Below are positions 36,463-55,951 of a stretch of DNA of 64,000 nt, piece by piece. Origin of the DNA: a virus; IMG/VR virus record IMGVR_UViG_3300037502_001322, positions 1 to 64,000 of that record. One strand, written 5' to 3'. The position numbers and the translations under genes were made by a program. The notes under the pieces were generated by a model. That model was given only the letters and a program-made list of their open reading frames with translations. It had not been told where the DNA came from and did not search any database. The first letter of the stretch is position 1. Every line of letters begins with the position of its first letter.

Positions 36463-39400
36463 TTAATCTTCAGAAATATCATGAACTACGGTGCTTCTCC
36501 AACCTTGTAGATTAGCTTCAACTCTTGTATCAACAAACTTTTCAGCACCATTGCTCGGATTGAAGATAACTTTGATTTCCCCTTTCTCTTGGTCAGTAAC
36601 CGATTTAGTTACCTTCAGTTCTGTAGGTTGGTTGTTAGACTTATTGACAGATGTGGCTGAATCAGATACAGTTGGAGGTACAAACATGTTGTACGGATTT
36701 AACCTGTCACCTGTTTCTTTAATAAATTTATCTCTTTCTTGAGAGGATTGAATCAAGCTTGTTTTGTTAGATAAATCATTAAATAAGTTTTCAAGTTTAT
36801 GACGAAGACCTTCAAAGAATGCGCCTATTTTATCAAAGAATGGTTTTGCTTTCTCATACATAGACTTAGCCCACTCTGTTGCACCTAAAGCATGGAGAAG
36901 TTCTCCTACCATAATAAGTGTACCAACAAAAGGAATAAATCTGCCAAAAAGCAAACCTAAACTTCCTGCAACTCTACCGACTCCTCCTGCTGCACCAGAT
37001 AAAGATCTTGCTCCGAAAGCAGTGGCGAAGATGCCCCCAGCCTTACCGAAAGGTAGAAGCTTAGAACCTAACCACATTAACGAGCTTCCAAACAGCTTCA
37101 TAATTTTGAACAATGACAAGAATATAAATGCTGCTGGAGCTATTGCTGCGAGCCACATTGCAATATTAGCACCATTAGATTTCATGCTCTCTTCTGTGAT
37201 ACCTAACCAGTTAGCAAAGTCTGCCATGTAGGCGACTGCAAGTTCTATAGGTGTTACTACTAACCACAATGCTCTATGAAACACACCAGATAAGAAATTA
37301 GCAACTGGTTGTAACATGAACATTAAGTTTTCTAATGCACCGAATAGAAATTGCAACCCTGGTCCTAACCCTGCATCAAAAGATTCTCTCTTAAAATCAT
37401 TAAACGTATTGATTAATCTGTTAAGGTCAGCATTGAAGTTTTTAGTCATAGTATCAAGTTCACCAGACACTTTCTTTCTCATTAATGCTGCCAATTTAGG
37501 TAATGCTTCCAAGGGAAACATCAACCCATTTTCCATATCTTTACGGAGTTGTTTGGTGGATATTCCCATTGCCTCAGCCATTAAGGCTACGGCACCGGGC
37601 CGTTGTGTTCAGTTAAGCTCGCAAAACTTAACCCGCACCATTATGTGCAGCTACATATCTCTATGCAGACCAGATCATATCATTATCCTTAACTAAGGAT
37701 ATCTACCACTTCGAATGCCCTTAGCTTGCACCCTACGCCTTTCGGCTGATCGTTGAACGTTCATCTTATTTGTTAAAGATGATTCGCTGCTGATTGTCTT
37801 TATTGTAATGATTATTAGGGTTCGTTAAATATCACTACTTAATATCCTACATTACACTTAACAAGAGTTTCCAGCAATTCAATAGATTATTCGATACACA
37901 TTACTGTGTAAAGGGACTTTTCCAAATCCTGTCACCTAGTTGGTTATTTAATTCTTCCCAGACGTTCAGTTAAGTTCGCAACACTTAACCCGCACCATTA
38001 CGTGCTGCTTATAGTTTCCCCATAAGAGCAGACCATATCATCATCCCGTTAATCGGGGTTGCCTCCTGTTTGGAGTGCCATTAGCTTGCACCCTACTCGG
38101 TTACATTCATCACCGATGGTCGTTGAACCTTCTTTCTCATTGGTTTTATTAGATATTGATTAGATATATGTTTCCAAGATATACCGGATCTTATTTTAGT
38201 TGCTTGTTGTTTAGATATCCCAAATTCAATAACAGCTTCTTTTGGAGAACCACCTTCTTCGAAGAACTTACAAACTTTATGGACAACTTCTTCCGTCAGC
38301 TTAGATCTTCCATTAAGTTCTCCTTTCAAAGACGGAATTAATCCATCTTCCCACGCCTGTATAGTATTAGAGAATAAATCGCACCACTCTAAGTTATTTA
38401 CGTTGTTATTCAATTTATCATTATCTAAATGTTTTACTAAAACCTCACCCCAATGTTCTTTGGAACATTTCTCTACTAATTCTTGAGATGGACTATTAAG
38501 AAAAAGTTCAGCTACAAGCCTGTGAATCTTTAAAGTTTTTACATGACCATTTATAGTGACTTGTGTAATGCGATAGCCTTGTTTATTGATTCTAGTGTAT
38601 CTGACCTTTTTGTTTTTATAATTCCTAACTTCTCCGAGATTGGAGATCTCTAACATGGTGTAGATAGGATGACGTTTGTACTCAATGAGAAAACTTGGCT
38701 GCTGATTGCCCATTATTGACTCCTTAATTTAAAAAGAGTATTATACGCTAAACGTACATAATTGTCAATAATTAGGGTGTCCCAGCAATTAAAGAGGTTT
38801 TACATGGCCCAAGAATTAAGCCATGATTTGGTTTTTAGAGAACATTTGTTCGAGGGCTTTAAATATCCCATCCATTTCATCAGGAGTGTTACCAAAAGCG
38901 ACACCTGCTTCCATGAAAGAACTAAATATCTCGTTAACTTGTTCTAAAGGAGCTCCTGCTGAATTAGCAGCAAATGCAAATTTAGCAAAAGATTTAGCAG
39001 AATCAAGATAGGTCACACCTAACCTTTCTGCCTCTTTTCTTAAATACTCCATCTGGGAAGTTGCTTCATCCCCGAATACAACTCTCATCATCGATTCCAT
39101 TCTTTGGAATTGACTTCCTATAGTTGCCACACTCATAACAGCGCTAAACGCCGTAAATGAGGCTGTGCCTGCAACCATAGCACTTCTAAGACCTTTATAC
39201 TGGTCAGACAATCCTTTGACTGAAGCCGAATGCCTTCTCATATCAGAATTAAGGATGTTCAACCTTATTCTATAAGTAGAAGCTGTAATTGAACCAATTT
39301 TTAATTCATTATTGAGGTCATTCAATCTATCCCAATACTGTTTTATCTCAGCAGGTCTAAAAGATCCTCCTCTTAATCTTAAAGTATCTTTGAATCTTTC

Positions 39401-39916
39401 AGCACCAACTCCAGCTAACTCACCTCGCCTTAGTTGTTCTCTTGCCCGCATTCTTCGTTGTTTGTTTAACTCTTTTCTTAAGTTAATCGCATTTCGAACT
39501 TTCTGTTTATGCTCAGCAGCTTCTTGTTTAACCCTCGCGTCATGAGCTTTTCTATCAGCATCTATTTTTCTTTTATCTGCTTGGTCAAAAAGCTTTTGAA
39601 AATCAGATTGTCTTTTTAACTCAGACTTCCACCAATATTCATAGTTCTTGTCTAAAACTCTCTTCTGTGCAGTGTGGTCTAAATTAACACCGCCTTTCTT
39701 GGCCATTTTAGCTCTTTCACGGGACTCTTTCTTTATTCCATCCACAACCTTTCTTTGTTGTTGGACTTGTGTTTTTGCTACTCTGATTGGATTAGAGACT
39801 TTATCCATCATCTTCTTTAATCTATAGATCTCTTGTTTTGCTTTCTTAAAACTTGACCTATCAATCTGAGCAACAACTTTATTAATTAGCTTGCTGGCTA
39901 TTAATGTCTTTGCCAT
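36463..39916 (-). CDS. tape measure protein, spliced: exons 38819..39916, 37926..37957, 36463..37600 (755 aa)
   Basis: joining restores the tape-measure motif KALEQMFSKNQIMA|EELNNQLGDR|MPGAVALMAEAMG. Confidence 0.9.
37601..37925 (-). mobile_element. group I intron TMP-2 (325 nt, ORF-less)
   Basis: GGAU/GUCC P1 with U.G, AAUCAGCAG, P7 GAUCA/UGAUC, terminal G. Confidence 0.9.
37958..38818 (-). mobile_element. group I intron TMP-1 (861 nt) carrying an HNH endonuclease
   Basis: CAUGGCU/GGCCAUG P1, AAUCAGCAG, P7 GACCA/UGGUC, terminal G. Confidence 0.92.
38093..38713 (-). CDS. intron-encoded HNH homing endonuclease (NUMOD4-like/HNH/HTH)
   Basis: EISNLGEVR, KIHRLVAELF, HLDNDKLNNNVNNLEW; AGGAG SD. 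Confidence 0.9.
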   Translation of the reverse strand: MGNQQPSFLIEYKRHPIYTMLEISNLGEVRNYKNKKVRYTRINKQGYRITQVTINGHVKTLKIHRLVAELFLNSPSQELVEKCSKEHWGEVLVKHLDNDKLNNNVNNLEWCDLFSNTIQAWEDGLIPSLKGELNGRSKLTEEVVHKVCKFFEEGGSPKEAVIEFGISKQQATKIRSGISWKHISNQYLIKPMRKKVQRPSVMNVTE

Positions 39917-40105
39917 TTAGCTAACCTCCATTGTTTTTATAAGTAAATGATAACAATAATGATTATTGTTTATGACTTGCTATAGTTTATAACAAAACCC
40001 TTTTAATATCAATTCCATAACATTCTTAGGATATTTCGTAAACTATAGATAAAAGAAAAGCCCCACCTTAAAGATGGAGCGTTATATGGGGTCACGTTTT
40101 ATATT

Positions 40106-40324
40106 TTAAACGAAAGGCAGTTTTCCTTTCTGATTCTTATTGTTCTCTGCTTGTTTGCTCTGCTTTTCTGATTCTTTATGTTGGACTTCCTGAATATAAT
40201 CTTGAATATCCAGAAACTCATTCAACTTAAACAAGTACTCCATATCGTACATATTAAGACTATACCTTGTCTCTGATACTCGTTTATCTGTTATTACACG
40301 CAACAATAGAGAATCTAACCACAT
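40106..40324 (-). CDS. tail assembly chaperone, -1 frameshift extension (gpT-like)
   Basis: frame open back to slippery T TTT TTC at 40441-40447. Confidence 0.75.
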   Translation of the reverse strand: MWLDSLLLRVITDKRVSETRYSLNMYDMEYLFKLNEFLDIQDYIQEVQHKESEKQSKQAENNKNQKGKLPFV

Positions 40325-40362
40325 TAATGAGTTATGTGTGTTAACGTAAGTTAGTGCGTTCT

Positions 40363-40932
40363 TTAACCCTCGGGAAAGAGTTGTTTCAAGTGTCCCATTG
40401 GAAGTGCTGTTTTGAGAAGGCCGAACAAACCTTTTCTCTTGAAAAAAGGGCCGTAGTTCACCTCCAGAACTTTAACCGCAAGGTCGATCATTAGGTAAGG
40501 CTCACGACCGAACACTTCATTGATTCTATCACCAACAGCAACAGCAGTATTACCCTGAGCATAGGTAGTGGAGAACAGAATAGAGAAGAACCGATTAATA
40601 TCTTCTTCCTGCATAGTCTCAAACAATGTTATGATTGCCATCGGAAGAGATTCTGACAGATTGACAGAAGATGCTGCTTTCTCCAGTTGGTCAATAGAGG
40701 CACCCTTCAATTCACTAACAGCAGAGCCAAGAAGAATAGAAATAGGGGTAATAATAAATTTACCAATGATGGGCATATTGGACCAAAAACGATCTGGACC
40801 CCAGTGGTTAATAGTAAACATTTTCTTTCCGTCTTCAAACTCAATATCAATATTGGTTTGTTTCATAGAAAGAATGCCTTGAGGCGGGGATTGCATTTGA
40901 TTATAATTCTGATTGGAACCTAAAAGACTCAT
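40363..40932 (-). CDS. tail assembly chaperone (gpG-like)
   Basis: between tube and tape measure; VLEVNYGPFF. Confidence 0.8.
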   Translation of the reverse strand: MSLLGSNQNYNQMQSPPQGILSMKQTNIDIEFEDGKKMFTINHWGPDRFWSNMPIIGKFIITPISILLGSAVSELKGASIDQLEKAASSVNLSESLPMAIITLFETMQEEDINRFFSILFSTTYAQGNTAVAVGDRINEVFGREPYLMIDLAVKVLEVNYGPFFKRKGLFGLLKTALPMGHLKQLFPEG

Positions 40933-41119
40933 GCGTTCACTCCTGTGAAATATGAATAGTTTGTTTAAATACGTTTATAATTTAAAGACTAAATTAACCT
41001 ACATTATGATAATCTATTTTAACTTTAAAGTCAATGCTTAGTCACTACCCTTTTAAATAAAGAGATGCACTTCCTTGTGCCGCATTAACCTTTCAGTTAA
41101 TGAAAATCAGATATTGAAA

Positions 41120-41611
41120 TTAACCAAGAGAGTTGGGGGTGATTGAACCGAGAGCACCAAGACCTGCACCAATAGCAGATTGACCCATAGATGCATTAGA
41201 TACCCAAATAGTCCATTCAATTACAGGAATACCATCACCATCTACAGTATAGTCACCTTGTTGCATAACGATACCTACAGGAGAGATAAGACTCAAACCA
41301 GTCGGGTCTTCAAAGTAAACAGGGAAACCTACCAAACGGGAAGCTTTAGAAGCAGTTACCCATGAAGCAAGAATAGCATTAGTTTCTTTCGCAGTTTCTT
41401 GGATTTGAATAGTGATAGTGCCGGATTCATTTCGGTTAATACCAACCGAGAATTCACCATCAGCACCAACCATAGTGTTGAAATGATCTTCGTTTCGAGA
41501 AATAGTTATCTTAGAACCTTCTGCGAAACCATAAGGTTGCCACCCACCAAGCAACAACTTGCAGGATGCTGAGTCGTACGCACGAGGAAGTGTCAGATAC
41601 GGATTAGCCAT
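41120..41611 (-). CDS. tail tube protein (DUF3277-like)
   Basis: YD....LGG...GFAEGSKITI...VGADGE...SGTITIQ. Confidence 0.85.
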   Translation of the reverse strand: MANPYLTLPRAYDSASCKLLLGGWQPYGFAEGSKITISRNEDHFNTMVGADGEFSVGINRNESGTITIQIQETAKETNAILASWVTASKASRLVGFPVYFEDPTGLSLISPVGIVMQQGDYTVDGDGIPVIEWTIWVSNASMGQSAIGAGLGALGSITPNSLG

Positions 41612-41630
41612 ATTATTTAAAACTCCATAA

Positions 41631-41660
41631 TAAAAGGTTGCTGTCTAAGAGCAACCTTGT
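41631..41660 (-). terminator. probable terminator after the sheath gene
   Basis: aaggttgct/agcaacctt stem + U-tract. Confidence 0.55.
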
Positions 41661-41690
41661 TAATCTAAATTTATTTAATTAAACTGACTC

Positions 41691-43055
41691 TTAGCGGTCG
41701 AGAATAACACCAGCACGAATCTTGATGTAATGTACAGGAGTGCGATAAACTACTTCAACAAGCAGGTCGCGCCAAGTACGATTAGCCAGATCATCAGCAG
41801 TGATTTGAGAACGGTCGGGGATGATAATCTTAGGACGCAGGTCAGAAGAGCTTCCATCACTATTTTGAATAAGGCCATTCTTATCACCAAAGATTGCACC
41901 GTTAGCGATATCCCGATTCAAGGGATTATCATACAGAGCTTGAGCAATCAGGGCTGCACCATCTTCATCCATAGTAACCTTGGAAAGGATATCAGACTTA
42001 CGTTTCAGCAGACCAAACAGAGACTCTTCAACACGAGAAGCGAAGTACAGAGCATAGTGCATATAGTCAAGAAATACACCAGAAGCCATACGACCGTCAC
42101 GGTAGAAACCAACACCCTTATCCCGCAGGTACAAGTTACCATTCCAAGTTACGATATTAACTTTCTGGGAGTCACTCAGTTTATTAGGAGTAATACCAAC
42201 AAGAGTTTTACCGTGCATAGTGGAAGTGCCGGGGATAGTAGAAGCATATGCACCAATTACAGCAGCTTCAGGAACAGTAGTATCCGCATCTGGTGCCCAC
42301 ATTGCAAAACAAGTGTTATTATAAGCCAGTTCAGCAACTTTCTGAAGAGTGTTGTTAAGGGTATTATCTCTAATACCAGTGTCTTGAGAAGACCAAACAA
42401 AAATCTTACGATTGGTTTCAGCCCAAGCAGCGGCGGCAAGGACATCAACTTCAGTGTGACTATCCTGAGCTACCCAGAAGAAAGCATTGGTCTCTTCCAG
42501 AATATCATTCAGTGCAGTAGTCACACTCTCAAGAGTAGATGTTACACTCATGTTAGCGGTAACAGAAACAGTGAAAGTTGCATCAGGAGTAACAGTCAGG
42601 GTCAGGGTGCTAATACTTACAACAGCAGTAACTTGTGCAGCAAAAGCAGAAGCATCAATCTGATCTTTGATTTCACCAAGAATAGTCGCTTCATCTTCAA
42701 TGGTCGCTGTGAAAGTGAAGTCAGTATCTACAGCACCATCAGTGAAGGTCACAGTATAAGTTTCAGCAGCGGCAGTAGGAAGAGTAATAACCCATTCATC
42801 AACAGACCGTTTACCTACATAAATTTGAGAGGGTTTAGCAACACCGTTGAACATGTGGGTAGCTGCTTGATAAACAACACCGTTTACATCAAAACCGTCA
42901 TCCTCAAGAGCAGCAGTGGATGTGTAAACACGATAACGTTCAGAGAAATTATTATGAGAGGAGAGGAACAAAGGAATGTCGAATTGAGCACCTTCAATTG
43001 CTGTTGCTCCAAGAAGCAACTGGACGTCAATTACATTAGGTTCAAAAGTAGCCAT
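41691..43055 (-). CDS. tail sheath protein (DUF3383-like)
   Basis: FDIPLFL, PGTSTMHGKTLVGI, DGRMASGVFLD, DLANR; highly expressed codon bias. Confidence 0.9.
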   Translation of the reverse strand: MATFEPNVIDVQLLLGATAIEGAQFDIPLFLSSHNNFSERYRVYTSTAALEDDGFDVNGVVYQAATHMFNGVAKPSQIYVGKRSVDEWVITLPTAAAETYTVTFTDGAVDTDFTFTATIEDEATILGEIKDQIDASAFAAQVTAVVSISTLTLTVTPDATFTVSVTANMSVTSTLESVTTALNDILEETNAFFWVAQDSHTEVDVLAAAAWAETNRKIFVWSSQDTGIRDNTLNNTLQKVAELAYNNTCFAMWAPDADTTVPEAAVIGAYASTIPGTSTMHGKTLVGITPNKLSDSQKVNIVTWNGNLYLRDKGVGFYRDGRMASGVFLDYMHYALYFASRVEESLFGLLKRKSDILSKVTMDEDGAALIAQALYDNPLNRDIANGAIFGDKNGLIQNSDGSSSDLRPKIIIPDRSQITADDLANRTWRDLLVEVVYRTPVHYIKIRAGVILDR

Positions 43056-43101
43056 TATTTATAGGACTCCTTAATTAAAAAGATAAAATTGTGTAAGTAT
43101 T

Positions 43102-43776
43102 TTAAACCCACGTAGCTTCCCAAGTACCATCTAAGGGAAGTTCATAGTTAATATGTTCATAAACAAGATTACTGTAGGTAATTACCTCCGAAGTGACCCA
43201 ATATATCCATGATGGGTTCACCGTAAAATTTAAAGGATAATTACCTCCTTCTTCTGTTGTTTTAACATTTACAAAAAGTTTTTCAGCAATTACGGAAGGA
43301 ATTGGGTCAGCATCTGAAACACCTATATTAAGAACAACCGTCATTCTTGCTCTTAACTCTTTTTCAGCACCATCAAGAACAGTATCAGCTTTTGCTACAG
43401 AGGATACTTGTGAAACCCCTATCCCAAAATCAAGAAGATGTTTTCTCTTCAAATTGATGTGCTCAAAAGAATGAGTTATCTGCATTAATCTTGAAGTAGG
43501 TCTTCCTCTGAAGCTCATTACCTCTAAAAGGACTTCATACCAATTTATCGCAATCTGCCTATCCTGCGTATCCAATTGGTCAGGATAAAAAGACCTTCCT
43601 GTACGATTAATATTAGTAACTTGAAGTCCTACATACTCTTCTTCGATTCGAGGCCAATCTCTGTCTAACAAGAACATCTTAACACCGGAAGGTGTCTCAT
43701 CTGATATTGTTGCTTCTTTTATAAACAAACCCATTTGATTAAGTATGGTATCTTCTATATTATAAAATTCAGCCAT
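43102..43776 (-). CDS. tail terminator / neck protein
   Basis: position before sheath; E.RARM motif. Confidence 0.7.
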   Translation of the reverse strand: MAEFYNIEDTILNQMGLFIKEATISDETPSGVKMFLLDRDWPRIEEEYVGLQVTNINRTGRSFYPDQLDTQDRQIAINWYEVLLEVMSFRGRPTSRLMQITHSFEHINLKRKHLLDFGIGVSQVSSVAKADTVLDGAEKELRARMTVVLNIGVSDADPIPSVIAEKLFVNVKTTEEGGNYPLNFTVNPSWIYWVTSEVITYSNLVYEHINYELPLDGTWEATWV

Positions 43777-43785
43777 AATTAATCC

Positions 43786-44187
43786 TTATTCATTATTAGG
43801 GTCTTTGACAACAACAGCATGATAATGCGGTATTAGCTGATTGTTCCATTTCTTAACACTAATGACTGTGAATAGGGAAACACCATTGACACCATCTATT
43901 TCCAACTGGTCAGAGATTTGATTTGTCCCTTCAACTGCAACAGTTATTGGAGTATTGGTAAAAACGTTATATGCTTCTTTTGCACGTAACCCCTCATCTA
44001 ATACTTGTAACTGTTGTCCAGTTAGAGGTTGTACCGTGCAGCGTAATGCAGCAAAAGGTGTGGATGTTGTGCTCTCTAAGTCATTCTCAAAAACACCACC
44101 GGTTTCTTTTACAACAAACCTGTGATATCCTTGAAGTGTTATTCTTGGGATGAATCCGGAATTGCGGAGATAAGTGAATTGCAACAA
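43786..44187 (-). CDS. head closure / head-tail joining protein
   Basis: VQPL...L.VLDEGLR...HYHAVVV; GGAGG + TTG. Confidence 0.75.
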   Translation of the reverse strand: MLQFTYLRNSGFIPRITLQGYHRFVVKETGGVFENDLESTTSTPFAALRCTVQPLTGQQLQVLDEGLRAKEAYNVFTNTPITVAVEGTNQISDQLEIDGVNGVSLFTVISVKKWNNQLIPHYHAVVVKDPNNE

Positions 44188-44292
44188 ACCTCCTAAAAGA
44201 TTTCTAAAGATTTATTAAATTGATTATTGACTTATAATCTCAGGATATTAACTTAACTAAGTTTAACACAATAGTTAAACAAATTCAACAAT

Positions 44293-44847
44293 TTACCTTT
44301 TCTTCTTAAAAGGATTGGATGTAAATGTATACTTATAAGGAGTATTCTTTGTGTAGCCGTAAGTTTTAGCATCATATCTCATTTTCCACCCGAGCCTAAA
44401 CTTAAGACATTTTCCGGGTAAGGTTTTTATGAATGCCCTTATTTGGTAGTAATGTGTTCCCTTAATATACGTAAAAGACCACCCTGCTTTATAAGGGTCG
44501 TCGTTGCTGTCTAAGTCCCCCTTAACCACAATAGTTTCACCTTGTTCTATATGACAAGCTAAAACACTCCACGAGAAACCATAAGCAGGATTGCGGATCA
44601 ACCACAGCATCCTACGGATATATTTAGGCCATCTTAGACTAACTACATTAACAAACCCGGAATCTCCATCTAAAGGAGCGTCCGGCGTTTGAAACCAAGA
44701 TAAATAAGTGGGCAGTTTATCTTTACCTATAGCAAACAAAGGTAAGATTGGGCTGAGTAAGTAACACAAGAATATCACAGTTAAGTGTATGGGTAGAATT
44801 ATTATTGATAAAATAAACCCCCAAACAAGTTTAATTGATTGTTTCAT
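44293..44847 (-). CDS. membrane-associated phage protein
   Basis: N-terminal TM; LPTYLSWFQTPDAPLDGD, WLIRNPAYGF. Confidence 0.75.
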   Translation of the reverse strand: MKQSIKLVWGFILSIIILPIHLTVIFLCYLLSPILPLFAIGKDKLPTYLSWFQTPDAPLDGDSGFVNVVSLRWPKYIRRMLWLIRNPAYGFSWSVLACHIEQGETIVVKGDLDSNDDPYKAGWSFTYIKGTHYYQIRAFIKTLPGKCLKFRLGWKMRYDAKTYGYTKNTPYKYTFTSNPFKKKR

Positions 44848-44849
44848 AA

Positions 44850-45320
44850 TTATTCCCCATCACCTTCATCCTTTCCAACTTTAAACTTAGAATCATTTCT
44901 TAATTGTTTTGTGTCAACAAGAATAGTGTCATGTCCTTTCTTAGCCACTGTCTCAGGTTTCAAAGGAATGAAGTCTTGACTGTCAATGGACTCTGCTATA
45001 GCCTTCTGTCCTAATTTGCCAATTTTGGTGTATGCGACATTGGGTTTGATTCCTAAAGCAATAGCATCACCTATAACATCTGCAATACGGATATCACCGT
45101 ACATATTATTACCAGCCATGGTCATAAAAGGACGAGAAGGAATATTATTTTTAGTAGAACCAAATTCATGAATAGCAGCTAAGTCGCTCATAGCTAATCC
45201 GGAAGATTCGTGAGTGTGTTCTTCGAAATATCCTATTTCAACACAGTTTTCTTCAAGTTCTTTTAGGTTATCAAATATCTCATCCCATCTATCAAATTCA
45301 AAATAAGAGCTACCTTTCAT
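44850..45320 (-). CDS. neck / tail completion protein
   Basis: AAIHEFGS...IPSRPFM...PLKPETVAKKG...LVDT. Confidence 0.85.
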   Translation of the reverse strand: MKGSSYFEFDRWDEIFDNLKELEENCVEIGYFEEHTHESSGLAMSDLAAIHEFGSTKNNIPSRPFMTMAGNNMYGDIRIADVIGDAIALGIKPNVAYTKIGKLGQKAIAESIDSQDFIPLKPETVAKKGHDTILVDTKQLRNDSKFKVGKDEGDGE

Positions 45321-45333
45321 AATAGCCTCTTAA

Positions 45334-46182: not shown

Positions 46183-46200
46183 AATGTGTTATCCTTATTG

Positions 46201-46719: not shown

Positions 46720-46963
46720 TATTAACTCCTTGTTTAATAAGAGAGATTATCATTTGATTTGTTATTTAAACAAACATAGTTTAACATATTCTTAAACCAA
46801 AAGAAATAAAACACAAAACAATCTGAGGATTGGTTAATGAAATATATTGACTTTCATTTGGATTTGATATAAAAGAAAACCATCTATCGGTTAGGACAGA
46901 TGGTTAAGAATGGCAATATAAATTATAGTGTAAATTATAATATTAACTACTGATAGTTTATTA

Positions 46964-48313
46964 TTACTCTTTATATTTGTAGTCCTCTGGATTCAAACCG
47001 TAGTTAGTTTTAATATAGTCGAGAATCTTGGGTAAATTTTTGACTTGAGTTGTTTCTGTGTACCCATCAGGCATTGTATTTTTAGTTACAAACTTAGTAC
47101 CTACCAACTTCTTAATCTCACTCTCCAACTCTCGTATAAATCTTCCATCTGAAGATTTAAACTCATACAATATCCTTGGAACATATTTAGTGTACCTTCT
47201 CTGGTATGAAACCCTACCATTAACATCAAGGTTAGTTATTCCGTATTTTAAGAATGATAAGTTATCTTTATTCCACACAACTAAGTACAACGAACCCGGT
47301 TTTATATTATTAAACCCTGCTTTTGCATGATTTGGACAGCCACTACCGTTCAAATGAGATGTAGCGGACTGTACAAAATATTCTGAACAAACTTTACAGT
47401 AAATCTCTACTTTATATTTAGCTTGTACGTATATTGTATTTGAGTAATCATACTCGTTATCTGGATGTACTTTCTTAGCTTTCATTATAAACTCTTCGAT
47501 ATTACTAAGAACTTGTTTCCTTTTAAATTCCTTTAAGCACAACGGGCAGCCTCCATTACCGCTAAGATGAAGGTGAGGTAGTTGCTCAAACTCATGGGAA
47601 TGTTTATTACATATAATTTTAACTTTTGTCTTTGTATTAAGATATATAGCATTTCTATAATCATATTTATCACCGTGCATCTTTACAGCACGACTAATAA
47701 AAGACTCGATGTTTCCTCTACAAGAATCTTTTGCACATAAAGGACAGCCTGAACCAAGCAAGTGTTTATTGGGAGTCTGTAGGAATTCTCCGTGCAATTT
47801 ACAAACTATAGCTACTTTAGTTGATACGTTTTTATAATCAACTTTAGAATAGTCATATTTGTTATTGTGTATCACTGTAGCATCATTTGTAAAAGATTCT
47901 GCACTTCTTTTCTTACCGCAAGGATGGCACTTTTTATGATTTGCTCCTTTCAAATGAGAATTAGGAGTTTGCTCAAAATGTTCTTTACATTTATTACACC
48001 AAATAGTAACTTTTGTTCTGGTATTTTTATAGATCACTTCAGAATAATCATATTTACTCCCATGCTTTTTCTTTGCTTCCTCTATAAAACTTTCCTTATC
48101 TACAGCTTTGTACACGTCTCCACAGAGACGACAGCCACTCTTCCCATAAATGTGGCTTGAAGGTGTCTTCTCAAAGATAATATTGTGTTCAGGACATATT
48201 ATTTTTACTTTAGTTATATTATTTTTGTACTCTACCAATGAGTAATCATACTTTCCTTTACCGTGAACTTCCTCGGCGTGTTTGATAAATTCTTCTTTTG
48301 TTTTTCTTGTCAC
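46964..48313 (-). CDS. free-standing homing endonuclease: five DUF723-like zinc-finger repeats + GIY-YIG-like domain
   Basis: YDY....Y....KV.I.C..F.....H..G..C x5; GSLYLV...LKYGITN...R; AGGAG SD + GTG. Confidence 0.82.
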   Translation of the reverse strand: MTRKTKEEFIKHAEEVHGKGKYDYSLVEYKNNITKVKIICPEHNIIFEKTPSSHIYGKSGCRLCGDVYKAVDKESFIEEAKKKHGSKYDYSEVIYKNTRTKVTIWCNKCKEHFEQTPNSHLKGANHKKCHPCGKKRSAESFTNDATVIHNNKYDYSKVDYKNVSTKVAIVCKLHGEFLQTPNKHLLGSGCPLCAKDSCRGNIESFISRAVKMHGDKYDYRNAIYLNTKTKVKIICNKHSHEFEQLPHLHLSGNGGCPLCLKEFKRKQVLSNIEEFIMKAKKVHPDNEYDYSNTIYVQAKYKVEIYCKVCSEYFVQSATSHLNGSGCPNHAKAGFNNIKPGSLYLVVWNKDNLSFLKYGITNLDVNGRVSYQRRYTKYVPRILYEFKSSDGRFIRELESEIKKLVGTKFVTKNTMPDGYTETTQVKNLPKILDYIKTNYGLNPEDYKYKE

Positions 48314-48329
48314 ACTTTTCTCCTGATAT

Positions 48330-48375
48330 AAAATAACCCTATCCAGAATTATATCTGGATAGGGTTTAATGTCAA
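48330..48375 (-). terminator. capsid-gene terminator hairpin overlapping the endonuclease promoter
   Basis: 13-bp stem 48335-47/48354-66 + U-tract; TTGACA-N16-TATAAT with the -10 forming the loop. Confidence 0.7.
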
Positions 48376-48400
48376 GAGTTAAATTGTAATTTCGAAACTA

Positions 48401-49700
48401 TTACACGAGCACTGCGGTACTGTGTACGATAACCTCCGGCTTCACAGGAACAGCAAGAACGGAAGTTTCGCTCTCCAGTCGGTAAGAACGGTTAAAACTA
48501 TCTTCCTTATAAAGGAGAGTCAATTCTTGACCGGGCTGGTTAGCCATAGCAGCGTCATCTGCTGGAGCAAAGTACAGACGGAACATATCATCGTTAGAGG
48601 AAACCCAAGGCATAACTACGGCCTTATCAGCATCCAAATAATCGTTGATAACTTCAATTATAAACAGACCTTTGTGGCTGAAAGTACGGTTGATAGCGTT
48701 ACCACCCAGTCGCTTACGCAGAGGGTCTTGTTCACTGGAGTAATACTGGTATGCGGCCTGCACGATAGGATGCTGAATGAGCTTACTAAAGTAAGATTTA
48801 CCAGCAAACATAACCAGTTGGTACTCAGTCATCATATCCTGAGCATTTACAGCAATGTGCTGACGAGCTTCTTCCAAAGTCTCAAAGGGGTCAGTGGTTG
48901 CATCAGTCAGATCAACACCAACCTGCTTCTTAGTAACACCAAAAGCGGTGTAGTAATCGTATGCAGGTGTCACACCCTCACCTTCATAGGAAGTACCGTT
49001 GAAGATACAAGCAGACAGTACGCGCTCTTTCAGTTGAGCGTGCATACGGGTAATACGTTGCATGATGCGGATAACTTCATCTTGCAGGGTTTTGGACTCA
49101 TCACCAGAACCATACTTGCGAAAGTTCTGAATGTCTTCAGGTCGAATGTTACGCCTTTTATTCGAGTAAAGTCGCTACACTTTACCCCGTTCTCTTATGA
49201 ACTGCTTATAGTTTCCTATAAGAGTAGACTATATCACGGTCTTCGATTAAAATCGTTAAGACCCCTACCACTTCGAACACCAATCGCTTGTGTTCTACTC
49301 CCACTCACGGGATAGTCGTTGAACCTTCTTCTCTGTGAGAAGCTTGGCTGCTGATTGCCCTCGTCTTGACCGATACGTTAGGGGTTTCCAGCAATTCAAT
49401 AGGTTTTCACTTAATCATTTCTGATAAAGGGGACTGCATTCAATCCAGAGGGAAAAACGGAACGTTGAAGTTCACAGTTTGCGCGGTTTCAGAAGAAACG
49501 AAATTGCGCTCGCCGCCCCTACTACGTGCAGCAAACAAACCGTTAACTTCTTGAACACGTTCTACTTGGGCGACAGTAGTAGAAATATTATGAACACTGA
49601 ACATATCCATACCGGTCAGCAGGGACCAAGTACGTGGCAGTAAATTGATCTCCGAACTATAATCCAAGAGCAGGAAATCGGATGCGCGGGTAGTTGCCAT
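48401..49700 (-). CDS. major capsid protein, spliced: exons 49443..49700 and 48401..49153 (336 aa)
   Basis: junction FNVPFFPLD|RNIRPEDIQNFRKY; major capsid E-like sequence; strong codon bias. Confidence 0.92.
49154..49442 (-). mobile_element. group I intron MCP (289 nt, ORF-less)
   Basis: GGAU/GUCC P1, AAUCAGCAG, GUUCAACGACUA, GAUAUAGUCU, terminal G. Confidence 0.92.
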
Positions 49701-49776
49701 TATTTAAAACTCCTAAATGAGAAAAGTTTATCTATTGTAGATATCTATTATTGAAATAAAATGCTGTTAATAACTG

Positions 49777-50202
49777 TTAAGCTTCAACGGCGGCGGCAGT
49801 GCCAAACACTTTATCAGTAACTTTGTTAGCACCAGCAGCTTCAAAAGCAGCGATAGCGGTAGCAGAAGCAGCTTTAGCAGCACCAGTAGTGCCGTCAGCC
49901 ATCTTCACGTAGTTCTTATTCACGGTAACACCACGCTTAGCAACAACCAGAACATGATCCCCAGCAGCCAGACCGTCACCTTGGTCAACACGAACGTCAA
50001 CCAGAACAGCAACAGCGTCAGCTTCAGTGGTAGAGGCGCCATCTACTACGTTAATCAGTTTAGTACCGGAGACTTCCAGCAGCATACCAGCGGTAGAAGC
50101 GGCAGTAACGGTCACAGTAGCTTCTTCGAAAGACCAGCCCAAATCGCTTGACTGAACACCACCGAGAACTACATCACTATAAAATTTTTCAAGAGTAGCC
50201 AT
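49777..50202 (-). CDS. head decoration protein
   Basis: Ala/Val-rich, immediately upstream of the capsid gene. Confidence 0.78.
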   Translation of the reverse strand: MATLEKFYSDVVLGGVQSSDLGWSFEEATVTVTAASTAGMLLEVSGTKLINVVDGASTTEADAVAVLVDVRVDQGDGLAAGDHVLVVAKRGVTVNKNYVKMADGTTGAAKAASATAIAAFEAAGANKVTDKVFGTAAAVEA

Positions 50203-50265
50203 TTAATTAATTTCCTTTATTAACGTTAATATTAGTTTTTTGTTTGACAGGTTTAACCTAAACGA

Positions 50266-51396
50266 TTAAAGCCATTCTTTCTGACCAAACTTAGCGGTGA
50301 TTCGCTCAGCAAGGCTTGATTTCTTAATAGCGGTTTGGTCTTCTTCTTTAGATTCTTCAGCACCAACTTCCGCACCCGGATTAGCAATAGCAAACTCTTC
50401 TTTTGCTTTATTCAGTTCTTCTTGAGCTTTCTGGAGCAGACCAACCAGAGTGTCCACAACGGGATTGTCAACGTTTTCCATCAGACCTTTAACCAGTTCA
50501 TCTTTTTGTTCATCAGCAACAAAGGTCAGAGATTTGGTCAGGGATTGGAAGGACTTTTCCAGATTAGCTTTTTGAGCTTTTTCAAGTTCCTCAGCACGAG
50601 CTGCTTTCTTTTCCAGCTCTTCCATTCGCTTCAGAAGTTCCATATATTCAGCAGATTTGGTGACATCGGAAACAGGAGCTTCTGTTTTCTCTACTTCAAC
50701 CTTTTCGGCATCAACTTGAACATCTGCTTTTTCAAGCTCTTGTTCTTGCTTAACTTCAGTTTCAGAACTCATTGAGTTATCATCCTCTTGTTTTTGAATT
50801 TCTTTCTTGGGTTTAGGTTTGTTTGAATAAGATTTAGGTTTCTTAGATTTTTCAATCTCTTCGATTGATTCTTGAATCTTCAGACCTTGTTCAAACTTGA
50901 TTTGAGTTTTAAGAATCTCAAGATATTCTTTAGGGTCAACACCATTAAAGTCTTTGAATGCTTCAAGAGATTTCATAAGTTTGATATGAGAAACTTTTTC
51001 GTCCAGATATTCCCGATGTTGTTCAGGAGTATGTTCGTAGTGATTCTCTTCTTCATATTCTTCTTGTTCTTTCAGGTAATACTCAAACTCGGTTTCCATT
51101 CCAAGAAGGTGAGTCAGCTTTTCAGCATCACTCCAATAAAGACCAAAGAAACGAACAAGGAACTCTTCCATTGAAAGTTCGACAGTGACTTGAGACAAAG
51201 CTTTAAGAATATCAGCGTTAACCTCAATATCCTCTGACTTCATAAGCAGTGCAATATCTTTCCAACCATTAGCACCATGACCTTGTGCTCGGTGGCACAC
51301 AGCCAGATGGGAACCTTCGTGGTCAAAACTCACATCGGTGATTTCACTAAAATTCTCAAGGTCTTTAAGAATCTTACCTTTATTTTTGATTGCCAT
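50266..51396 (-). CDS. capsid scaffold / head maturation protein
   Basis: E/K-rich coiled coil, repeated LxKS/EKA putative cleavage motifs. Confidence 0.78.
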   Translation of the reverse strand: MAIKNKGKILKDLENFSEITDVSFDHEGSHLAVCHRAQGHGANGWKDIALLMKSEDIEVNADILKALSQVTVELSMEEFLVRFFGLYWSDAEKLTHLLGMETEFEYYLKEQEEYEEENHYEHTPEQHREYLDEKVSHIKLMKSLEAFKDFNGVDPKEYLEILKTQIKFEQGLKIQESIEEIEKSKKPKSYSNKPKPKKEIQKQEDDNSMSSETEVKQEQELEKADVQVDAEKVEVEKTEAPVSDVTKSAEYMELLKRMEELEKKAARAEELEKAQKANLEKSFQSLTKSLTFVADEQKDELVKGLMENVDNPVVDTLVGLLQKAQEELNKAKEEFAIANPGAEVGAEESKEEDQTAIKKSSLAERITAKFGQKEWL

Positions 51397-51416
51397 TATT
51401 TATCCTCTTAACTTAG

Positions 51417-52172
51417 TTATTCTTTGTTATCCTGATTAACTTCAGCACGAGGTTTATGAACAATGCCTTTAGCTCCAATGCTTAAACCCCCAACCACACC
51501 AGCTTTGCGAAGCAACCACAGAGTTTTATCAAGATATTTAATCTCAGCAACCCAAGTTCCTTCTGAAACAGTGATAGGGTTATCTTCAGTTCCAAAAGTC
51601 ATTTCTTCATCAATCACATAAGTCTTAAGGATTTGAATCTGGTCTGGGGCATTCTGTAAATGGAATAGATTAGGTTGAACTATCCCTTTCTGGAGATTGT
51701 AGTTGAAGTTCTCACAAGCTTTAAGGATAGTTTCTTCACTCATCCATTCACCATGAGCATCAGGCTTGTAAGGTTCATAAACCACTTCAAGTGTTATCTG
51801 TTCTTCGTGGTTAACCGCTTTGAATAGATTTAAGTCAGAGGAAAAGCTATTAGATTTAGAATCTTTCTCGTGTTTGATTATTAAACTTTCATCTTGAGCA
51901 GATTGCTCTTGTGAACCATCTTTAATAGCACCGAAGTGATTATCTAAAAAGCTCTCAAACATTTTCAAAAGAGAACCTTTATCATTAACCACTTCATTAT
52001 CATTAGTGTTTATAACTTTTGTCTGTGCTTGTTCTATTTCTTTCTTCTTTAGAAGATTAAGATATTCAATAGATGAAAGTTTGTTATTAGGAGAATCCAA
52101 CAAACCTCCATTAAATGTTATATTATTGATATTTATAACTATATCGCTTTTCAACTTTACTAAGTTTAACAT
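51417..52172 (-). CDS. XkdF-like prohead serine protease (true start probably further downstream)
   Basis: VYEP..PDAHGEWMS...NLFH...GTWV...GGLSIGA; annotated ATG lies inside the promoter motif. Confidence 0.85.
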   Translation of the reverse strand: MLNLVKLKSDIVININNITFNGGLLDSPNNKLSSIEYLNLLKKKEIEQAQTKVINTNDNEVVNDKGSLLKMFESFLDNHFGAIKDGSQEQSAQDESLIIKHEKDSKSNSFSSDLNLFKAVNHEEQITLEVVYEPYKPDAHGEWMSEETILKACENFNYNLQKGIVQPNLFHLQNAPDQIQILKTYVIDEEMTFGTEDNPITVSEGTWVAEIKYLDKTLWLLRKAGVVGGLSIGAKGIVHKPRAEVNQDNKE

Positions 52173-52232
52173 AATGGAAAAGTAAAATCAACAACTTATC
52201 AAATTGTCAACTAATTTTCCATTATTTTATTA

Positions 52233-53828
52233 TTAACTTTCTAAATTAGCGGCATCGTTATCTTGTCCAGAGTTAGCTGAACCCGTCCCTGACGGCAGAC
52301 CCTCACTCATTCCATCACCAGAGCGTGATGTCTTTTCGGGAAGAATTGCATCAAGTTCTTCAGGACTCATATCATCAGGAATGCGATATTTAAAGTCCAA
52401 CCCTTCAAGAACTTCATTAATAAGTTCAGGAACACGGGGCAGGAAACCAACAGCAGCAACACGCTGAACAGCTTTAGATGTGTTATCGATATCCAAGTCA
52501 TCCACAAGTCCGGGAAGAATCTTAGGCATATCTGAATCTTTAAGCTTAATTCCATTAAGTGCCAATAGTTGAGGAATCAGTTCACGGTTAAAGACTTCAG
52601 CGTAGTACTCAATTTTATTCAGAATGATTTGACCATATAATCCTTTCTGCAAATCACCGAGAGCATATGAGCCACCTGAACCATTCTGGCCCAGCATAAT
52701 AAAGCCAGCTCCAAAGCAGTTAAGAATAGCCTTGTGGCGTTGCTCAATCAATTGTGTGGTGTCGAACTGCTTGCCTGCACCTTCTACGCCCAAGAACTTA
52801 ATCTCGTACTCTTTAGCGGTTGTAGAGCCTTCCTGAACGTCTGAAGGGAGCATCATATAGGCTTGTTCACCAGCGTGAAGGTTAGCCACATTCTGTTGCA
52901 GCTTCATCAAAGACTTGGCTTCAGGGCCATTAGGATTAGTCACAGCAGCATCGAAGATAGCTTTAGGTGCATGAATAACAGGAACACCAGACATATCTTT
53001 AGAAACACCAACAACTTCCAAGTCCTCAATAAGGACAATCTCACGCCAAGGTTTATAGGCACCAACTAAAGAGGAACGACCTAAAGGATTACCATTAGTT
53101 GAACCGGGAGCAAACAGAAGGAACTTATTTCGAGGAATAAAAATGTCTGTGGGATTCTCCACTTGAGTTTCAAAGAAAAGATTTGACAAAGCATTCAGAT
53201 TCTTAGTAGACTGGCGACAGCCTAAAATAGTGCGTGTGTCATCATCAAACTTAAAAGGCTTAGTTTCAGATAAACTCTTTTGTGCCCTTGGTGACAATCG
53301 TTTCAGCTTATAAGGAAACTCAGGATATTCACCAGAAACATTAGCTTCATAAGCTTTAACCAGAATAGAGAATCCATATTTCTCCGCAGTCTGAGCTTCG
53401 CGAACAGCCGCTCTCATTGATGTTTCCATATTATTGAGACACCAACTAACAAACTCTGTTGCTTTCTTTGACTCTTCAGACTCAGGATTACCAACGACTT
53501 TATATTGACTGAAAGCTTTTTCAATCATAACACGTTGAACTTCAAGAGCAACCCATACTGAAGGGTGGTAGTGCATAGCATCGAAGGTTTTAAGACATTG
53601 GGGCCAACGAAGGTCAGCCTTCATTTCTTCATTAACAATATCGTTAACAGCTTTGAGACCAAGATACCCAATGTCACCAATACGCAAACGAGAGGTTGCT
53701 ACGCTCATGCTGTTAAGTTTTTCAATTTGACGCTTTACTTCTCGTTGTTGCTTCTCTTCTTCGGATAGAGGCGGTCTCCCACGCCCCCGTTTCTTGGTTG
53801 TTTTATTAACTTCGGTTTCGGAATTCAT
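52233..53828 (-). CDS. portal protein
   Basis: 531 aa after terminase; GNPLGRSSL, GVSKDMSGVP, GSYALG. Confidence 0.88.
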   Translation of the reverse strand: MNSETEVNKTTKKRGRGRPPLSEEEKQQREVKRQIEKLNSMSVATSRLRIGDIGYLGLKAVNDIVNEEMKADLRWPQCLKTFDAMHYHPSVWVALEVQRVMIEKAFSQYKVVGNPESEESKKATEFVSWCLNNMETSMRAAVREAQTAEKYGFSILVKAYEANVSGEYPEFPYKLKRLSPRAQKSLSETKPFKFDDDTRTILGCRQSTKNLNALSNLFFETQVENPTDIFIPRNKFLLFAPGSTNGNPLGRSSLVGAYKPWREIVLIEDLEVVGVSKDMSGVPVIHAPKAIFDAAVTNPNGPEAKSLMKLQQNVANLHAGEQAYMMLPSDVQEGSTTAKEYEIKFLGVEGAGKQFDTTQLIEQRHKAILNCFGAGFIMLGQNGSGGSYALGDLQKGLYGQIILNKIEYYAEVFNRELIPQLLALNGIKLKDSDMPKILPGLVDDLDIDNTSKAVQRVAAVGFLPRVPELINEVLEGLDFKYRIPDDMSPEELDAILPEKTSRSGDGMSEGLPSGTGSANSGQDNDAANLES

Positions 53829-53895
53829 TGAGTTTTACTCTCCGTTTGATATAATGGTTTTCAGATACGGTTGTTTGGGTATCAGAATTTACTGA

Positions 53896-53961
53896 CTTTG
53901 TTGGACAACTATAATCAGGTTATTAGAAGCTGCTCAACTTTGTCGGGCAGCTATAATCCGG
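53896..53961 (-). repeat. synonymously recoded 24-nt duplication of the terL 3' end
   Basis: PDYSCPTK encoded at 53938-53961 and again in frame at 53896-53919. Confidence 0.75.
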
Positions 53962-55951
53962 AATAGCTAAGGCAGTGTGAACTTTAGATGCTGCAAGGAA
54001 GTTGAATGCTGAAGCCACAGCATCGGCCCAGTCATCGTGACGATGTGTTGAAGATCTTTCACCATCGAATGCTTCCAATTCTTTCATTAAGGCTTCATAG
54101 GTTTTAGGAGAAAATGTAGATTTAACTATTCTAACAAAACCTTGTTCTGCTGCACTTGCGAACGGTTCAAATCTCTTAAGTTTGGATTTGTTACCGGGGG
54201 TTGGGTCTTTCTTTACTGTATAACCTGTCTCTATTAAAGGTTTAGCAGAATTCTGAAACTCAGATAATCCAGAAGCACCGGGATCTACAGGAAACACTAC
54301 AACAGTGTCTGAACCATCATATTCAGCTTGCTTCCTAATAGTGACATCCCTTTCCCCTACTGATTTGCAGAATCTACCTCCTGTTTCAGTAACATCGTCA
54401 TAATTGTCTGGGTGATGGTCGCCTGTAATATAATAGAAACCATCCCGGCATTTATACATCTTACAAGAAGCTGTGAAGTCTGGGTTTTTATAAGAGACTG
54501 TTCGTTCTTTGCCAGCTTTATCCCATGCCCTTACTGATTTACAATGAAGAGGAACTTTATCTACTTCTTTAAGAAATTCTCGTTTGAAATATTTAGCACC
54601 TTTAGGTCTTGCATCCCAATTACCAAAAAGCAACTGAGCTTTATCTACTGGGTTAAGACCTTCAAGAAATGCAAGATAATCAGGATTGCTTTCAAGCATT
54701 GGAGGATTATCATATATAAGAGCAGAAATAAACTGAAAGGATATAGGTCGGACATTATCACCGAATTTCTCTTTCAATTCTTCCGAAGAGTTACCCCAGA
54801 AAAACTCGCCATCTCTTGTTATAAACCATCTAACCTTTCCATCACGTTCTGGGTCAGGGAACCCTTCATCATCCAGATACCAATCAATCAGTTCTCGTAT
54901 TTTATGATCTGGATCCGGGTTACAAGTTATAACCATGCGTGAAGGGTATTTAGAGTTGGACCTCAAGCGAGACATCATATATTCTACATTGTGTTCATGA
55001 GTGGGCGCTACACCACTCACCGGGATAGACCCAGCTACATGTTTCCATATAGATCAGACTATATCATCACCTTCAGCACTATCTGTTCAGGTGTCGTGCG
55101 CTTCGAGTGTCAATCGCTTACACTCTACTCCCTTTCGGGATAGTCGTTGAACGTTCTTCTTAAATTAAGAAGCTTCGCTGCTGATTGCCTTCGTTTATCA
55201 ACGTTAAGGTTTTCCAGCAATTCACACGATTTTCAATAACACATTTCTGTATTATGCAGCTAGTTTTAACTGAGACCACTCAAACTGAGTACCTTCATCT
55301 ACACCTATCAATGAAAACTGGGCACCTTGTATGTTATACTTATCAGACTCCCTCTCCATATGACTAAACTTTTGTTTAGCCCCAGATGGCCATATAAACT
55401 CAAGAGCTTTTTCTCTAGCTCTTGGTCTTTGGTTTAGAGGTAACTGCATATAAATACTTTTAGCTGTATCCCATATCCCTCCTCCAGATGTAATTTGAGG
55501 TGTTGTCCTGCGAAACATTATAATGTTAGTGTTAGGGTCATCTACTATAAAAAGAGGTAAAAGTTGTAGCAAGTAGGATTTACCTGACAGATGTTCAGAT
55601 TGAGTCGTTAATTCAACCCCGCACCTTTATGTGCTGCTATGCATTTCTGCACAGTTCAGACTATATCATCAACCTAAACTGAGGTTGCCTCCCGTTTCGA
55701 ATTCACTTGAACCCTACACCTTACGGTTAGTCGTTGAACCTTCTTCTCATAGAGAAGCTTGGCTGCTGATCGGCTTAGCTTAAGTTATTAAACCTTAGCG
55801 TTCCAGCAATTAAAGAGGTTATTCAATCAGTGTCACCACTGAAGGCGGCCCGTTAACCGGCGGCACCACCTGCTACAAGTATTTGTGCTGTAGAATTAAG
55901 AATCATTTCCTGCTTCTTGGAAGCAGGGGCAAATAAAGGTTGATTACTCAT
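53923..55951 (-). CDS. terL: terminase large subunit, spliced: exons 55856..55951, 55269..55587, 53923..54986 (492 aa)
   Basis: joining restores Walker A GGAAG|SGKS and DEGTQFEWSQ|LEYMMSRLRS; TCNP; nuclease RAWD...HDDWADA. Confidence 0.93.
54987..55268 (-). mobile_element. group I intron terL-2 (282 nt, ORF-less)
   Basis: CAGU/GCUG P1, AAUCAGCAG, GUUCAACGACUA, GAUAUAGUCU, terminal G. Confidence 0.92.
55588..55855 (-). mobile_element. group I intron terL-1 (268 nt, ORF-less) inside Walker A
   Basis: CGGU/GCCG P1, GAUCAGCAG, GUUCAACGACUA, GAUAUAGUCU, terminal G. Confidence 0.92.

Follow-up and report, generated by a model that had tools for sequence, protein, structure and literature searches.

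Can a phage build its virion if the genes for its terminase (terL), its major capsid protein and its tape measure protein are all interrupted, and if it can, why are the interruptions there? These questions are raised by the late genes of a virus from a subsurface metagenome (IMG/VR record IMGVR_UViG_3300037502_001322; 103,675 bp, estimated to be 74% complete). We analyzed the first 64 kb of the record, which we will call the window, and within it the 19.6-kb stretch from 36463 to 55951, in which the three genes lie on the minus strand. The original prediction, made from the letters of the DNA, placed five group I introns here: two in terL, one in the capsid gene, and two in the tape measure gene. 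We recovered all five at the predicted positions, and judging from their sequences, they are bona fide group I introns. Our best explanation, to which we assign a probability of about 85%, is that they are selfish mobile introns of the IA2 type and that the virion proteins can be made only if these introns splice.

Five introns from one family

The original prediction called for a comparison with covariance models of group I introns, and we used the Rfam model (RF00028; gathering score 50 bits). Four introns matched on the minus strand across the full length of the model: terL intron 2 (54987-55268) scored 103.4 bits at 55035-55278, terL intron 1 (55588-55855) scored 92.8 bits at 55637-55869, the capsid intron (49154-49442) scored 88.9 bits at 49205-49451, and tape measure intron 2 (37601-37925) scored 68.1 bits at 37651-37935. 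Tape measure intron 1 (37958-38818) was not reported by RF00028 as a whole, because an open reading frame (ORF) of 621 nt sits in the loop of P6a; the 3' half alone gave a 5'-truncated match (15 bits, E = 0.095). However, an nhmmer profile that was built from the other four introns recovered it in two parts, 38140-37964 (E = 1.4e-28) and 38807-38681 (E = 2.2e-9). Across the entire record, the same profile had no further match at E ≤ 10, which implies that there are exactly five copies and that all of them are in the late module.

Tape measure intron 1 also shares four conserved 9-nt core words with the other introns, in the same order: AATTGCTGG, ATCAGCAGC, GTTCAACGA, and GATAT(G)GTC. When we tested two of the core words against shuffled sequences, we found exactly 5 occurrences of each in the window versus 0.3 expected. 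The five introns are 70-80% identical to each other, which is about as similar as they are to the introns of other phages. By this measure they are one family and not recent duplicates. (Rfam also gave weak matches to the S15 leader, ES173, and RF_site8; these were far below their thresholds and we dismissed them as due to chance.)

A conserved core with compensatory changes

We defined the helices intron by intron and checked their complementarity helix by helix; a consensus structure from MAFFT and RNAalifold had misaligned the intron that lacks P2. Pairing is complete in all five introns for P3, P4, P6, P7, P7.1, P7.2, P8, P9, P9.1, and P9.2. Four of the introns also have P2 (tape measure intron 1 lacks it), which in the capsid intron has one bulged U. 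P4 is invariant. Every other helix varies in sequence between the introns yet remains paired, so the changes are compensatory. For instance, P3 occurs as CCUCUU/GGGAGG, UCGUGUG/CGCACGA, and UCUAUUG/UGGUAGA, and P7.2 occurs as GAGUGU/ACACUC, GAACAC/GUGUUC, and GGGUGC/GCACUC. Covariation of P7 had been part of the original prediction, and we found it as described, with all five pairs formed in each intron: GACUA/UAGUC in three introns, GACCA/UGGUC in another, and GAUCA/UGAUC in tape measure intron 2. These are two different double (compensatory) changes. P7 is the guanosine-binding helix; it is maintained, and we predict that the introns bind guanosine.

The helices P7.1 and P7.2 (between P7 and the 3' strand of P3) and P9.1 and P9.2 (after P9) are present, paired, and covarying in all five introns. 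Judging by inspection of the helices, the introns probably belong to subgroup IA and are IA2-like. This assignment follows the Michel-Westhof classes, in which the P7.1/P7.2 and P9.1/P9.2 extensions mark IA2.

Splicing would restore three virion proteins

Each intron comes directly after an exon U, which can pair with a G of the internal guide sequence to form part of the P1 helix, and the last nucleotide of each is G, as had been predicted for all five. The P1 helices are CGGU/GCCG (terL intron 1, ending in the U.G pair), CAGU|UA/UAGCUG (terL intron 2), GGAU|UG/CAGUCC (capsid intron), AUGGCU/GGCCAU (tape measure intron 1), and GGAU|U/AGUCC (tape measure intron 2), where the vertical bar marks the splice site. 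When the exons were joined by a script, each gene became an open frame, with 492 codons for TerL, 336 for the capsid protein, and 755 for the tape measure protein. The predicted junctions also restore conserved motifs: they align without gaps to the corresponding proteins of the phages GAP31, PVP-SE1, and Hena1, respectively.

The first exon of terL (55856-55951, with its ATG at 55951) has 32 codons and ends with ...AGGAAG, which is the first half of the Walker A motif. Intron 1 (268 nt, ORF-less) lies inside this motif. Exon 2 (55269-55587) contains 106 codons plus 1 nt, encodes SGKSY...DEGTQFEWSQ, matches Pfam Terminase_6N, and is 67% identical to the TerL of Seunavirus. Joining exons 1 and 2 gives GGAAGSGKS, the same as in the TerL of GAP31, and across this junction GGAAGSGKSYLLQL is identical in that protein. 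Intron 2 (282 nt, ORF-less) is six codons past the Walker B motif (DEG), and exon 3 (53923-54986) encodes the nuclease domain (Pfam Terminase_6C and Terminase_6N). Overall, the spliced TerL is 63% identical to the uninterrupted TerL of GAP31, with no gap at either junction; at the second junction (WSQ|LEYMMSR), DEGTQFEWSQLEYMMSRLRS aligns to DEGTQFEWSQIEYLMSRLRS.

The capsid gene is divided into exon 1 (49443-49700; 86 codons), which matches positions 8-76 of the Pfam profile Phage_cap_E, and exon 2 (48401-49153), which matches positions 108-328. The intron between them (289 nt) is ORF-less. The spliced protein is 46% identical to the major capsid protein of PVP-SE1 and the alignment is gapless at the junction (FFPLD|RNIRPEDIQNF), with NFNVPFFPLDRNIRPEDIQNFRKY opposite NFNIPFFPLDRQITPADVQNFRKY and PFFPLDR conserved.

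In the tape measure gene, the two introns are separated by a micro-exon of just 32 nt (37926-37957), which encodes EELNNQLGDR plus 2 nt. Exon 1 (38819-39916; 366 codons) matches positions 2-106 of Pfam TMP_3, and exon 3 (36463-37600) has a weak match to positions 125-189. Intron 1 has 861 nt, and apart from the missing P2, all of its helices pair (P1 and P3 to P9.2). Intron 2 has 325 nt, is ORF-less, and has an enlarged P5 region. The micro-exon aligns gaplessly to AEELKGQLAEALPG of the Hena1 protein. Indeed, the whole of the spliced region is gapless against Hena1 (KNQIMAEELNNQLGDRMPGAV versus KGQIMAEELKGQLAEALPGSM, with QIMAEEL..QL....PG conserved), which validates the micro-exon and both of the junctions around it.

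In three of the introns, the first codon is an in-frame stop (TAA in terL intron 1, TGA in the capsid intron, and TAA in tape measure intron 1), and if the other two introns are read through, translation would stop after 5 and 8 codons. Unspliced transcripts would yield just 32 amino acids of TerL, 86 of the capsid protein, and 366 of the tape measure protein. Because the unspliced reading stops within 0-8 codons, we have a strong inference that the full-length virion proteins need splicing, in agreement with the original prediction. That prediction also held that the replication genes are intron-free, and this was borne out by the profile search of the record and by the genes themselves. The DNA polymerase (17917-20073), the primase/helicase (15248-17086), and the Dda-like helicase (12205-13536) are each encoded by a single uninterrupted ORF that has a full-length match to its family.

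A putative homing endonuclease in one intron and a free-standing endonuclease beside the capsid gene

The ORF in the P6a loop of tape measure intron 1 (38093-38713, minus strand) encodes a predicted HNH/NUMOD4 homing endonuclease of 206 amino acids. The ORF begins in the 3' strand of P5, overlaps the 3' strand of P4 as well as P6, P7, and P7.1, and then stops. The protein is similar to phrog_59 (HNH endonuclease; E = 8e-30) and to PDB entry 1U3E ("HNH homing endonuclease"; E = 2e-5), which we take to be I-HmuI, and it contains the motif KHLDNDKLNNNVNNLEW (HLDND...NNLEW). Its matches to Pfam are below the cut-offs: 20.5 bits for HNH_3 (cut-off 24.8) and 19 bits for NUMOD4 (cut-off 23.4). We consider it to be a putative HNH homing endonuclease of the I-HmuI type.

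The endonuclease gene seems to have its own promoter. In the P5 loop of the intron, at 38740-38768 on the minus strand, there is a predicted sigma-70 promoter (TTGACA-17-TATAAT) that matches the consensus at 12 of 12 positions. It is 27 nt upstream of the endonuclease's ATG, with a ribosome-binding site (AAGGAG) in between. This suggests that the endonuclease is expressed independently of the late tape measure transcript. The ORF-less tape measure intron 2 could hitch-hike by co-conversion, because 32 nt is well within a plausible co-conversion tract.

A second endonuclease gene (46964-48313, minus strand) is free-standing and is found downstream of the capsid gene, at a distance of 88 nt. Its product of 449 amino acids matches phrog_681 (endonuclease; E = 1.6e-100), with treble-clef zinc fingers in repeats and a C-terminus that resembles T5orf172. 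An endonuclease of Escherichia phage nepoznato, encoded right next to a group I intron that has no ORF, shares 28% identity with this product, which may mobilize the ORF-less capsid intron in trans.

The intron in nepoznato (Phapecoctavirus nepoznato, NC_052658.1, 1929-2197 on the minus strand) is not annotated. It matches RF00028 at 92.9 bits and is directly upstream of the coding sequence for the tape measure protein, between it and the ORF for a 438-amino-acid CapR/DUF723/T5orf172 "endonuclease". The tape measure gene of nepoznato may also be split by an intron and mis-annotated, and a tblastn search of the tape measure protein against this locus found no match.

Why are the introns there?

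We propose that, in an rV5-like (Vequintavirinae-related) myovirus, five IA2-like introns inserted themselves into three essential late genes at the motifs that are most strongly conserved, namely into Walker A, just after Walker B, into FFPLD|R of the capsid protein, and twice, 32 nt apart, into the core of TMP_3. During late transcription, each intron would fold its P3-P9 core, bind guanosine, and excise itself, and ligation of the exons would yield mRNAs for full-length TerL, capsid, and tape measure proteins. The stop codons at or just inside the 5' splice sites would keep ribosomes out of the ribozyme. The HNH enzyme would cut the intron-less tape measure alleles of co-infecting relatives, and as tape measure intron 1 homed into them, it would drag its ORF-less neighbor along. 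The other ORF-less introns would be degenerate former carriers or would have moved in trans, perhaps by means of the endonuclease beside the capsid gene. We attribute the introns to selfish mobility because one of them encodes a putative homing endonuclease that has a consensus promoter to itself and because a free-standing endonuclease adjoins the capsid gene; we infer both the homing and the lack of a regulatory role.

Several points weigh against this explanation. A search of sequencing runs listed no RNA run that contains the stretch, so splicing, whether in vivo or in vitro, is deduced from the DNA. The P1 of terL intron 1 has only 4 contiguous base pairs. Mobility is likewise only proposed, as we did not find an intron-less allele. 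Specifically, we examined contigs from four DNA runs across 36400-56000, and among the joints listed, none was at a predicted exon-exon junction. (The joints that were listed link different intron copies or the introns of other organisms and are silent about alleles.) A search of IMG/VR with capsid exon 2, for relatives in which to compare presence and absence, gave sequences that were only 30-35% identical, and a search for homologous proteins returned only the window's own protein. Also, four of the five introns lack an endonuclease, and our explanation does not account in detail for how they persist or spread. Finally, pure selfishness does not predict that all five introns would be in late genes and none in replication genes. 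This bias may be due to the particular genes that the phage has in common with co-infecting relatives.

Could the introns instead protect the phage or help it to compete? The ORF-less introns might disrupt the sites of competitors' homing endonucleases, and the endonuclease-bearing intron might give marker exclusion in mixed infections. Such a role would benefit the phage in conflicts with other phages and would be compatible with selfish introns. It would fit with the exact placement of the insertions in the best-conserved motifs (Walker A, post-Walker B, FFPLD, and the TMP_3 core), with the endonuclease that adjoins the capsid gene, and with its homologue that abuts the intron in nepoznato. 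Zeng and colleagues and Bonocora and Shub, both in 2009, reportedly describe a precedent in which the insertion site of an intron is the target of a free-standing endonuclease. On the other hand, the endonucleases of this phage have no known cleavage specificity, and neither intron-less nor competitor alleles were recovered in our searches of contigs and of IMG/VR. We consider a protective role to be unlikely. On a further reading, it was selection that confined all five introns to three late genes whose stoichiometry is critical, one of them with a 32-nt micro-exon for which two splicing events must be coordinated. Splicing would then be a checkpoint that links the output of virion proteins to the GTP or translation state of the host, or a form of immunity against the homing endonucleases of competitors, as opposed to neutral parasitism. 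This strikes us as quite improbable.

Another explanation, raised in the original prediction as a possible timing gate, is that splicing responds to GTP, Mg2+, or the state of translation. Production of the terminase, capsid, and tape measure proteins would thereby be coupled to the physiology of the infected cell, so that the introns are kept to control timing or dosage. The distribution of the introns (five in late genes and none in replication genes) could be taken as a sign of this, and the micro-exon does make the output of the tape measure gene depend on two adjacent splicing events. There is also a general precedent, for which PMC10914365 cites Sandegren & Sjoberg 2007 and Belfort 2017: the splicing of introns in phage T4 reportedly depends on translation and on the growth state of the host, and its efficiency is said to respond to environmental cues. 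However, we found no sequence feature that is specific to regulation, and nothing in the sequence favors a timing gate based on GTP or Mg2+. GAP31, PVP-SE1, and Hena1 express the same genes without introns; the introns of related phages are at other sites and in other genes, which fits opportunistic insertion; and one of the introns bears a putative homing endonuclease with its own consensus promoter. We therefore think that regulation is very unlikely to be why the introns are there.

It is more doubtful still that the introns are dead and that the proteins are assembled from fragments, as with the NrdA of phage Aeh1, which is split by mobE. Interruptions of phage genes that do not splice exist, as in the nicotinamide phosphoribosyl transferase of phage CB7 and in the NrdA of Aeh1 (discussed in PMC7344957). 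But in this phage, the elements of the catalytic core are all intact and the scores are far above the Rfam threshold. Furthermore, the pieces would include fragments of 32 and 106 amino acids and the 11-amino-acid micro-exon, without start codons or ribosome-binding sites, and Walker A would be split across two peptides.

Genomic context and soundness of the assembly

On the minus strand, the late genes follow the order seen in rV5-like myoviruses, beginning with terL, portal (52233-53828), a protease-like gene (51417-52172), head decoration (49777-50202), major capsid, the free-standing endonuclease, sheath (41691-43055), a structural protein at the position of the tail tube (41120-41611), tail chaperone (40363-40932), and tape measure. 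Using megablast, we compared the 19.6-kb stretch to phage records and found only short matches to intron cores, so this phage has no close relative at the DNA level in the phage collection.

Two other features of the window touch on this comparison or on endonucleases. Just upstream of terL are two tRNA genes (57467-57539 and 58312-58385, minus strand; 67 and 56 bits), and rV5-like phages such as JEP1 also have a tRNA cluster before terL. Outside of the late module, 2961-4442 on the minus strand encodes a 493-amino-acid protein that is similar to phrog_1314 ("HNH endonuclease"; E = 3e-96) and is likely a free-standing nuclease.

The source run has a second assembly, in which a Logan contig of 98,735 nt spans the entire 19.6-kb stretch with a single difference. 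A relative from a soil metagenome in another study, with 8 differences in 479 nt, spans the intron/exon boundary in the capsid gene; it contains 225 nt of the intron as well as the 3' junction. It is very unlikely that intron-like repeats misled the metagenomic assembly into placing introns inside the genes, even though the sample does contain repeated intron cores and many joints between intron copies look chimeric. The exons keep their order and reading frame, their junctions are exact, and both the second assembly and the soil relative agree with the record.

At 49300-49360 and 55030-55220, dozens of other contigs match just the intron cores and then diverge into unrelated sequence. These contigs are from the source metagenome and from a second run of the same study, and the summed word depth at these positions reaches about 100-2800, as compared to 24 for the phage. 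Related introns seem to be abundant in other genomes of the source community. Many contigs in these metagenomes match the stretch nowhere but in the intron cores, which implies that donor and recipient genomes coexist.

Significance

The original prediction had presented introns in late virion genes as a departure from what is known of phage introns. This aspect did not hold up, because introns in terL, capsid, and tape measure genes have already been published (PMC3606486, PMC7344957, PMC4299906, PMC3706429, PMC2504315). We view this phage as a clean and fairly dense case of a phenomenon that is documented in many phages, and not as a new kind of regulation or a new category. It does extend capsid and tape measure introns to the rV5-like lineage, for which the literature that we found reports introns in terL only. 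Besides these first capsid and tape measure introns found for the lineage, the points of interest are the 32-nt micro-exon and the endonuclease with a consensus promoter inside a ribozyme.

There is a practical consequence for annotation. ORF callers fragment three essential genes of this phage, leaving a 32-amino-acid start of TerL, an 11-codon micro-exon that is invisible, and a capsid gene that appears to be "truncated"; knowing the exact junctions repairs these annotations. The phage is also a compact test bed, with two introns that are 32 nt apart (one with an endonuclease and one without) and an ORF-less intron beside a free-standing endonuclease. This arrangement bears on co-conversion, on mobilization in trans, and on the cost or benefit of late-gene introns to the phage.

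Comparison to known phage introns

The closest comparison is to the terL introns of rV5-like phages. In Escherichia phage rV5, terL is in three segments and has two introns, with a homing endonuclease (PMC3606486); in Pectobacterium phage CB7, RT-PCR (reverse transcription PCR) showed that the terL intron splices (PMC7344957); and Moonbeam has two terL introns (PMC4299906). LL-H and K1E also have terL introns, as cited in the rV5, CB7, and Moonbeam papers. In the GenBank record for JEP1 (MT740314), we found two matches to RF00028 within terL, at DEG|TQF and FISA.I. rV5, JEP1, and CB7 are from the same lineage as this phage, within which TerL is 49-63% identical to its TerL in the aligned parts. 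The likeness extends to introns of the RF00028 type and to two terL introns at conserved motifs. However, JEP1 is cut after DEG|TQF and at FISA.I, whereas in this phage the introns are inside Walker A and six codons after DEG. Also, neither capsid nor tape measure introns are reported for rV5, JEP1, or CB7, while this phage has both, and its terL introns are ORF-less.

Multiple introns in packaging or head genes are also found in more distant phages of Gram-negative hosts. Pseudomonas phage KIL1 (Flaumdravirus, NC_030934.1) has matches to RF00028 in terL (2474-2725) and in the interval from terL to an HNH gene, upstream of portal (3362-3584), and the coding sequences of terL and portal are both annotated as joined. 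Acinetobacter phage YMC13/03/R2096 (NC_027332.1) has unannotated tandem introns at 2083-2352 and 2468-2690 on the plus strand (78.8 and 96.6 bits). These are within the first ~55 codons of terL, with the first one right after ...TVYGG, near Walker A, and the annotated coding sequence starts after both. In the stretches of these two genomes that we examined, we saw no capsid or tape measure introns.

For introns in the tape measure gene, the precedent is in prophages of the Bacillus cereus group, which have introns at three tape measure sites as well as in terL and in the tail-tube gene, with up to three per prophage (PMC2504315). As in this phage, several IA-type tape measure introns (TMP-IVS1/2/3) and a terL intron (term-IVS1/2) can occur together in the same prophage, and Tourasse and Kolsto (2008, PMC2504315) interpret them as mobile introns that are borne by phages. 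In contrast to this phage, these prophages are temperate, of the siphovirus type, and in Firmicutes; no capsid intron is described for them; and only here are the two tape measure introns 32 nt apart.

For the capsid gene, Cluster J mycobacteriophages have introns in capsid and tail genes that are spliced efficiently during late expression (PMC3706429). Tuc2009 has an intron in its capsid gene, as cited in PMC3706429, or in the "major head protein", as it is termed in PMC2504315. These are group I introns in the major capsid gene and in tail genes, as in this phage, and the capsid intron of Cluster J bears a homing endonuclease. However, these phages are of other types, infect other hosts, and have one or two introns per genome instead of five.

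Finally, the introns of this phage share their P7.1/P7.2 and P9.1/P9.2 helices and their core words with the classic IA2 introns of phages: td, nrdB, and sunY of T4, the DNA polymerase of SPO1 (with I-HmuI), nrdE and orf142 of Twort, and lysK of Kayvirus. Their core segments are 70-83% identical, at the nucleotide level, to introns from phages of Staphylococcus, Bacillus, and others. The classic cases are mostly in genes for nucleotide metabolism, replication, or lysis, whereas the five introns here are in late virion genes. More broadly, members of this intron family turn up in about 500-600 phage records, where the genes that they occupy include nrdE, lysK, DNA polymerase, terL, portal, and capsid. 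Within terL, the insertion sites in relatives of this phage differ from those that we describe, which is the pattern expected if introns homed independently into conserved motifs.

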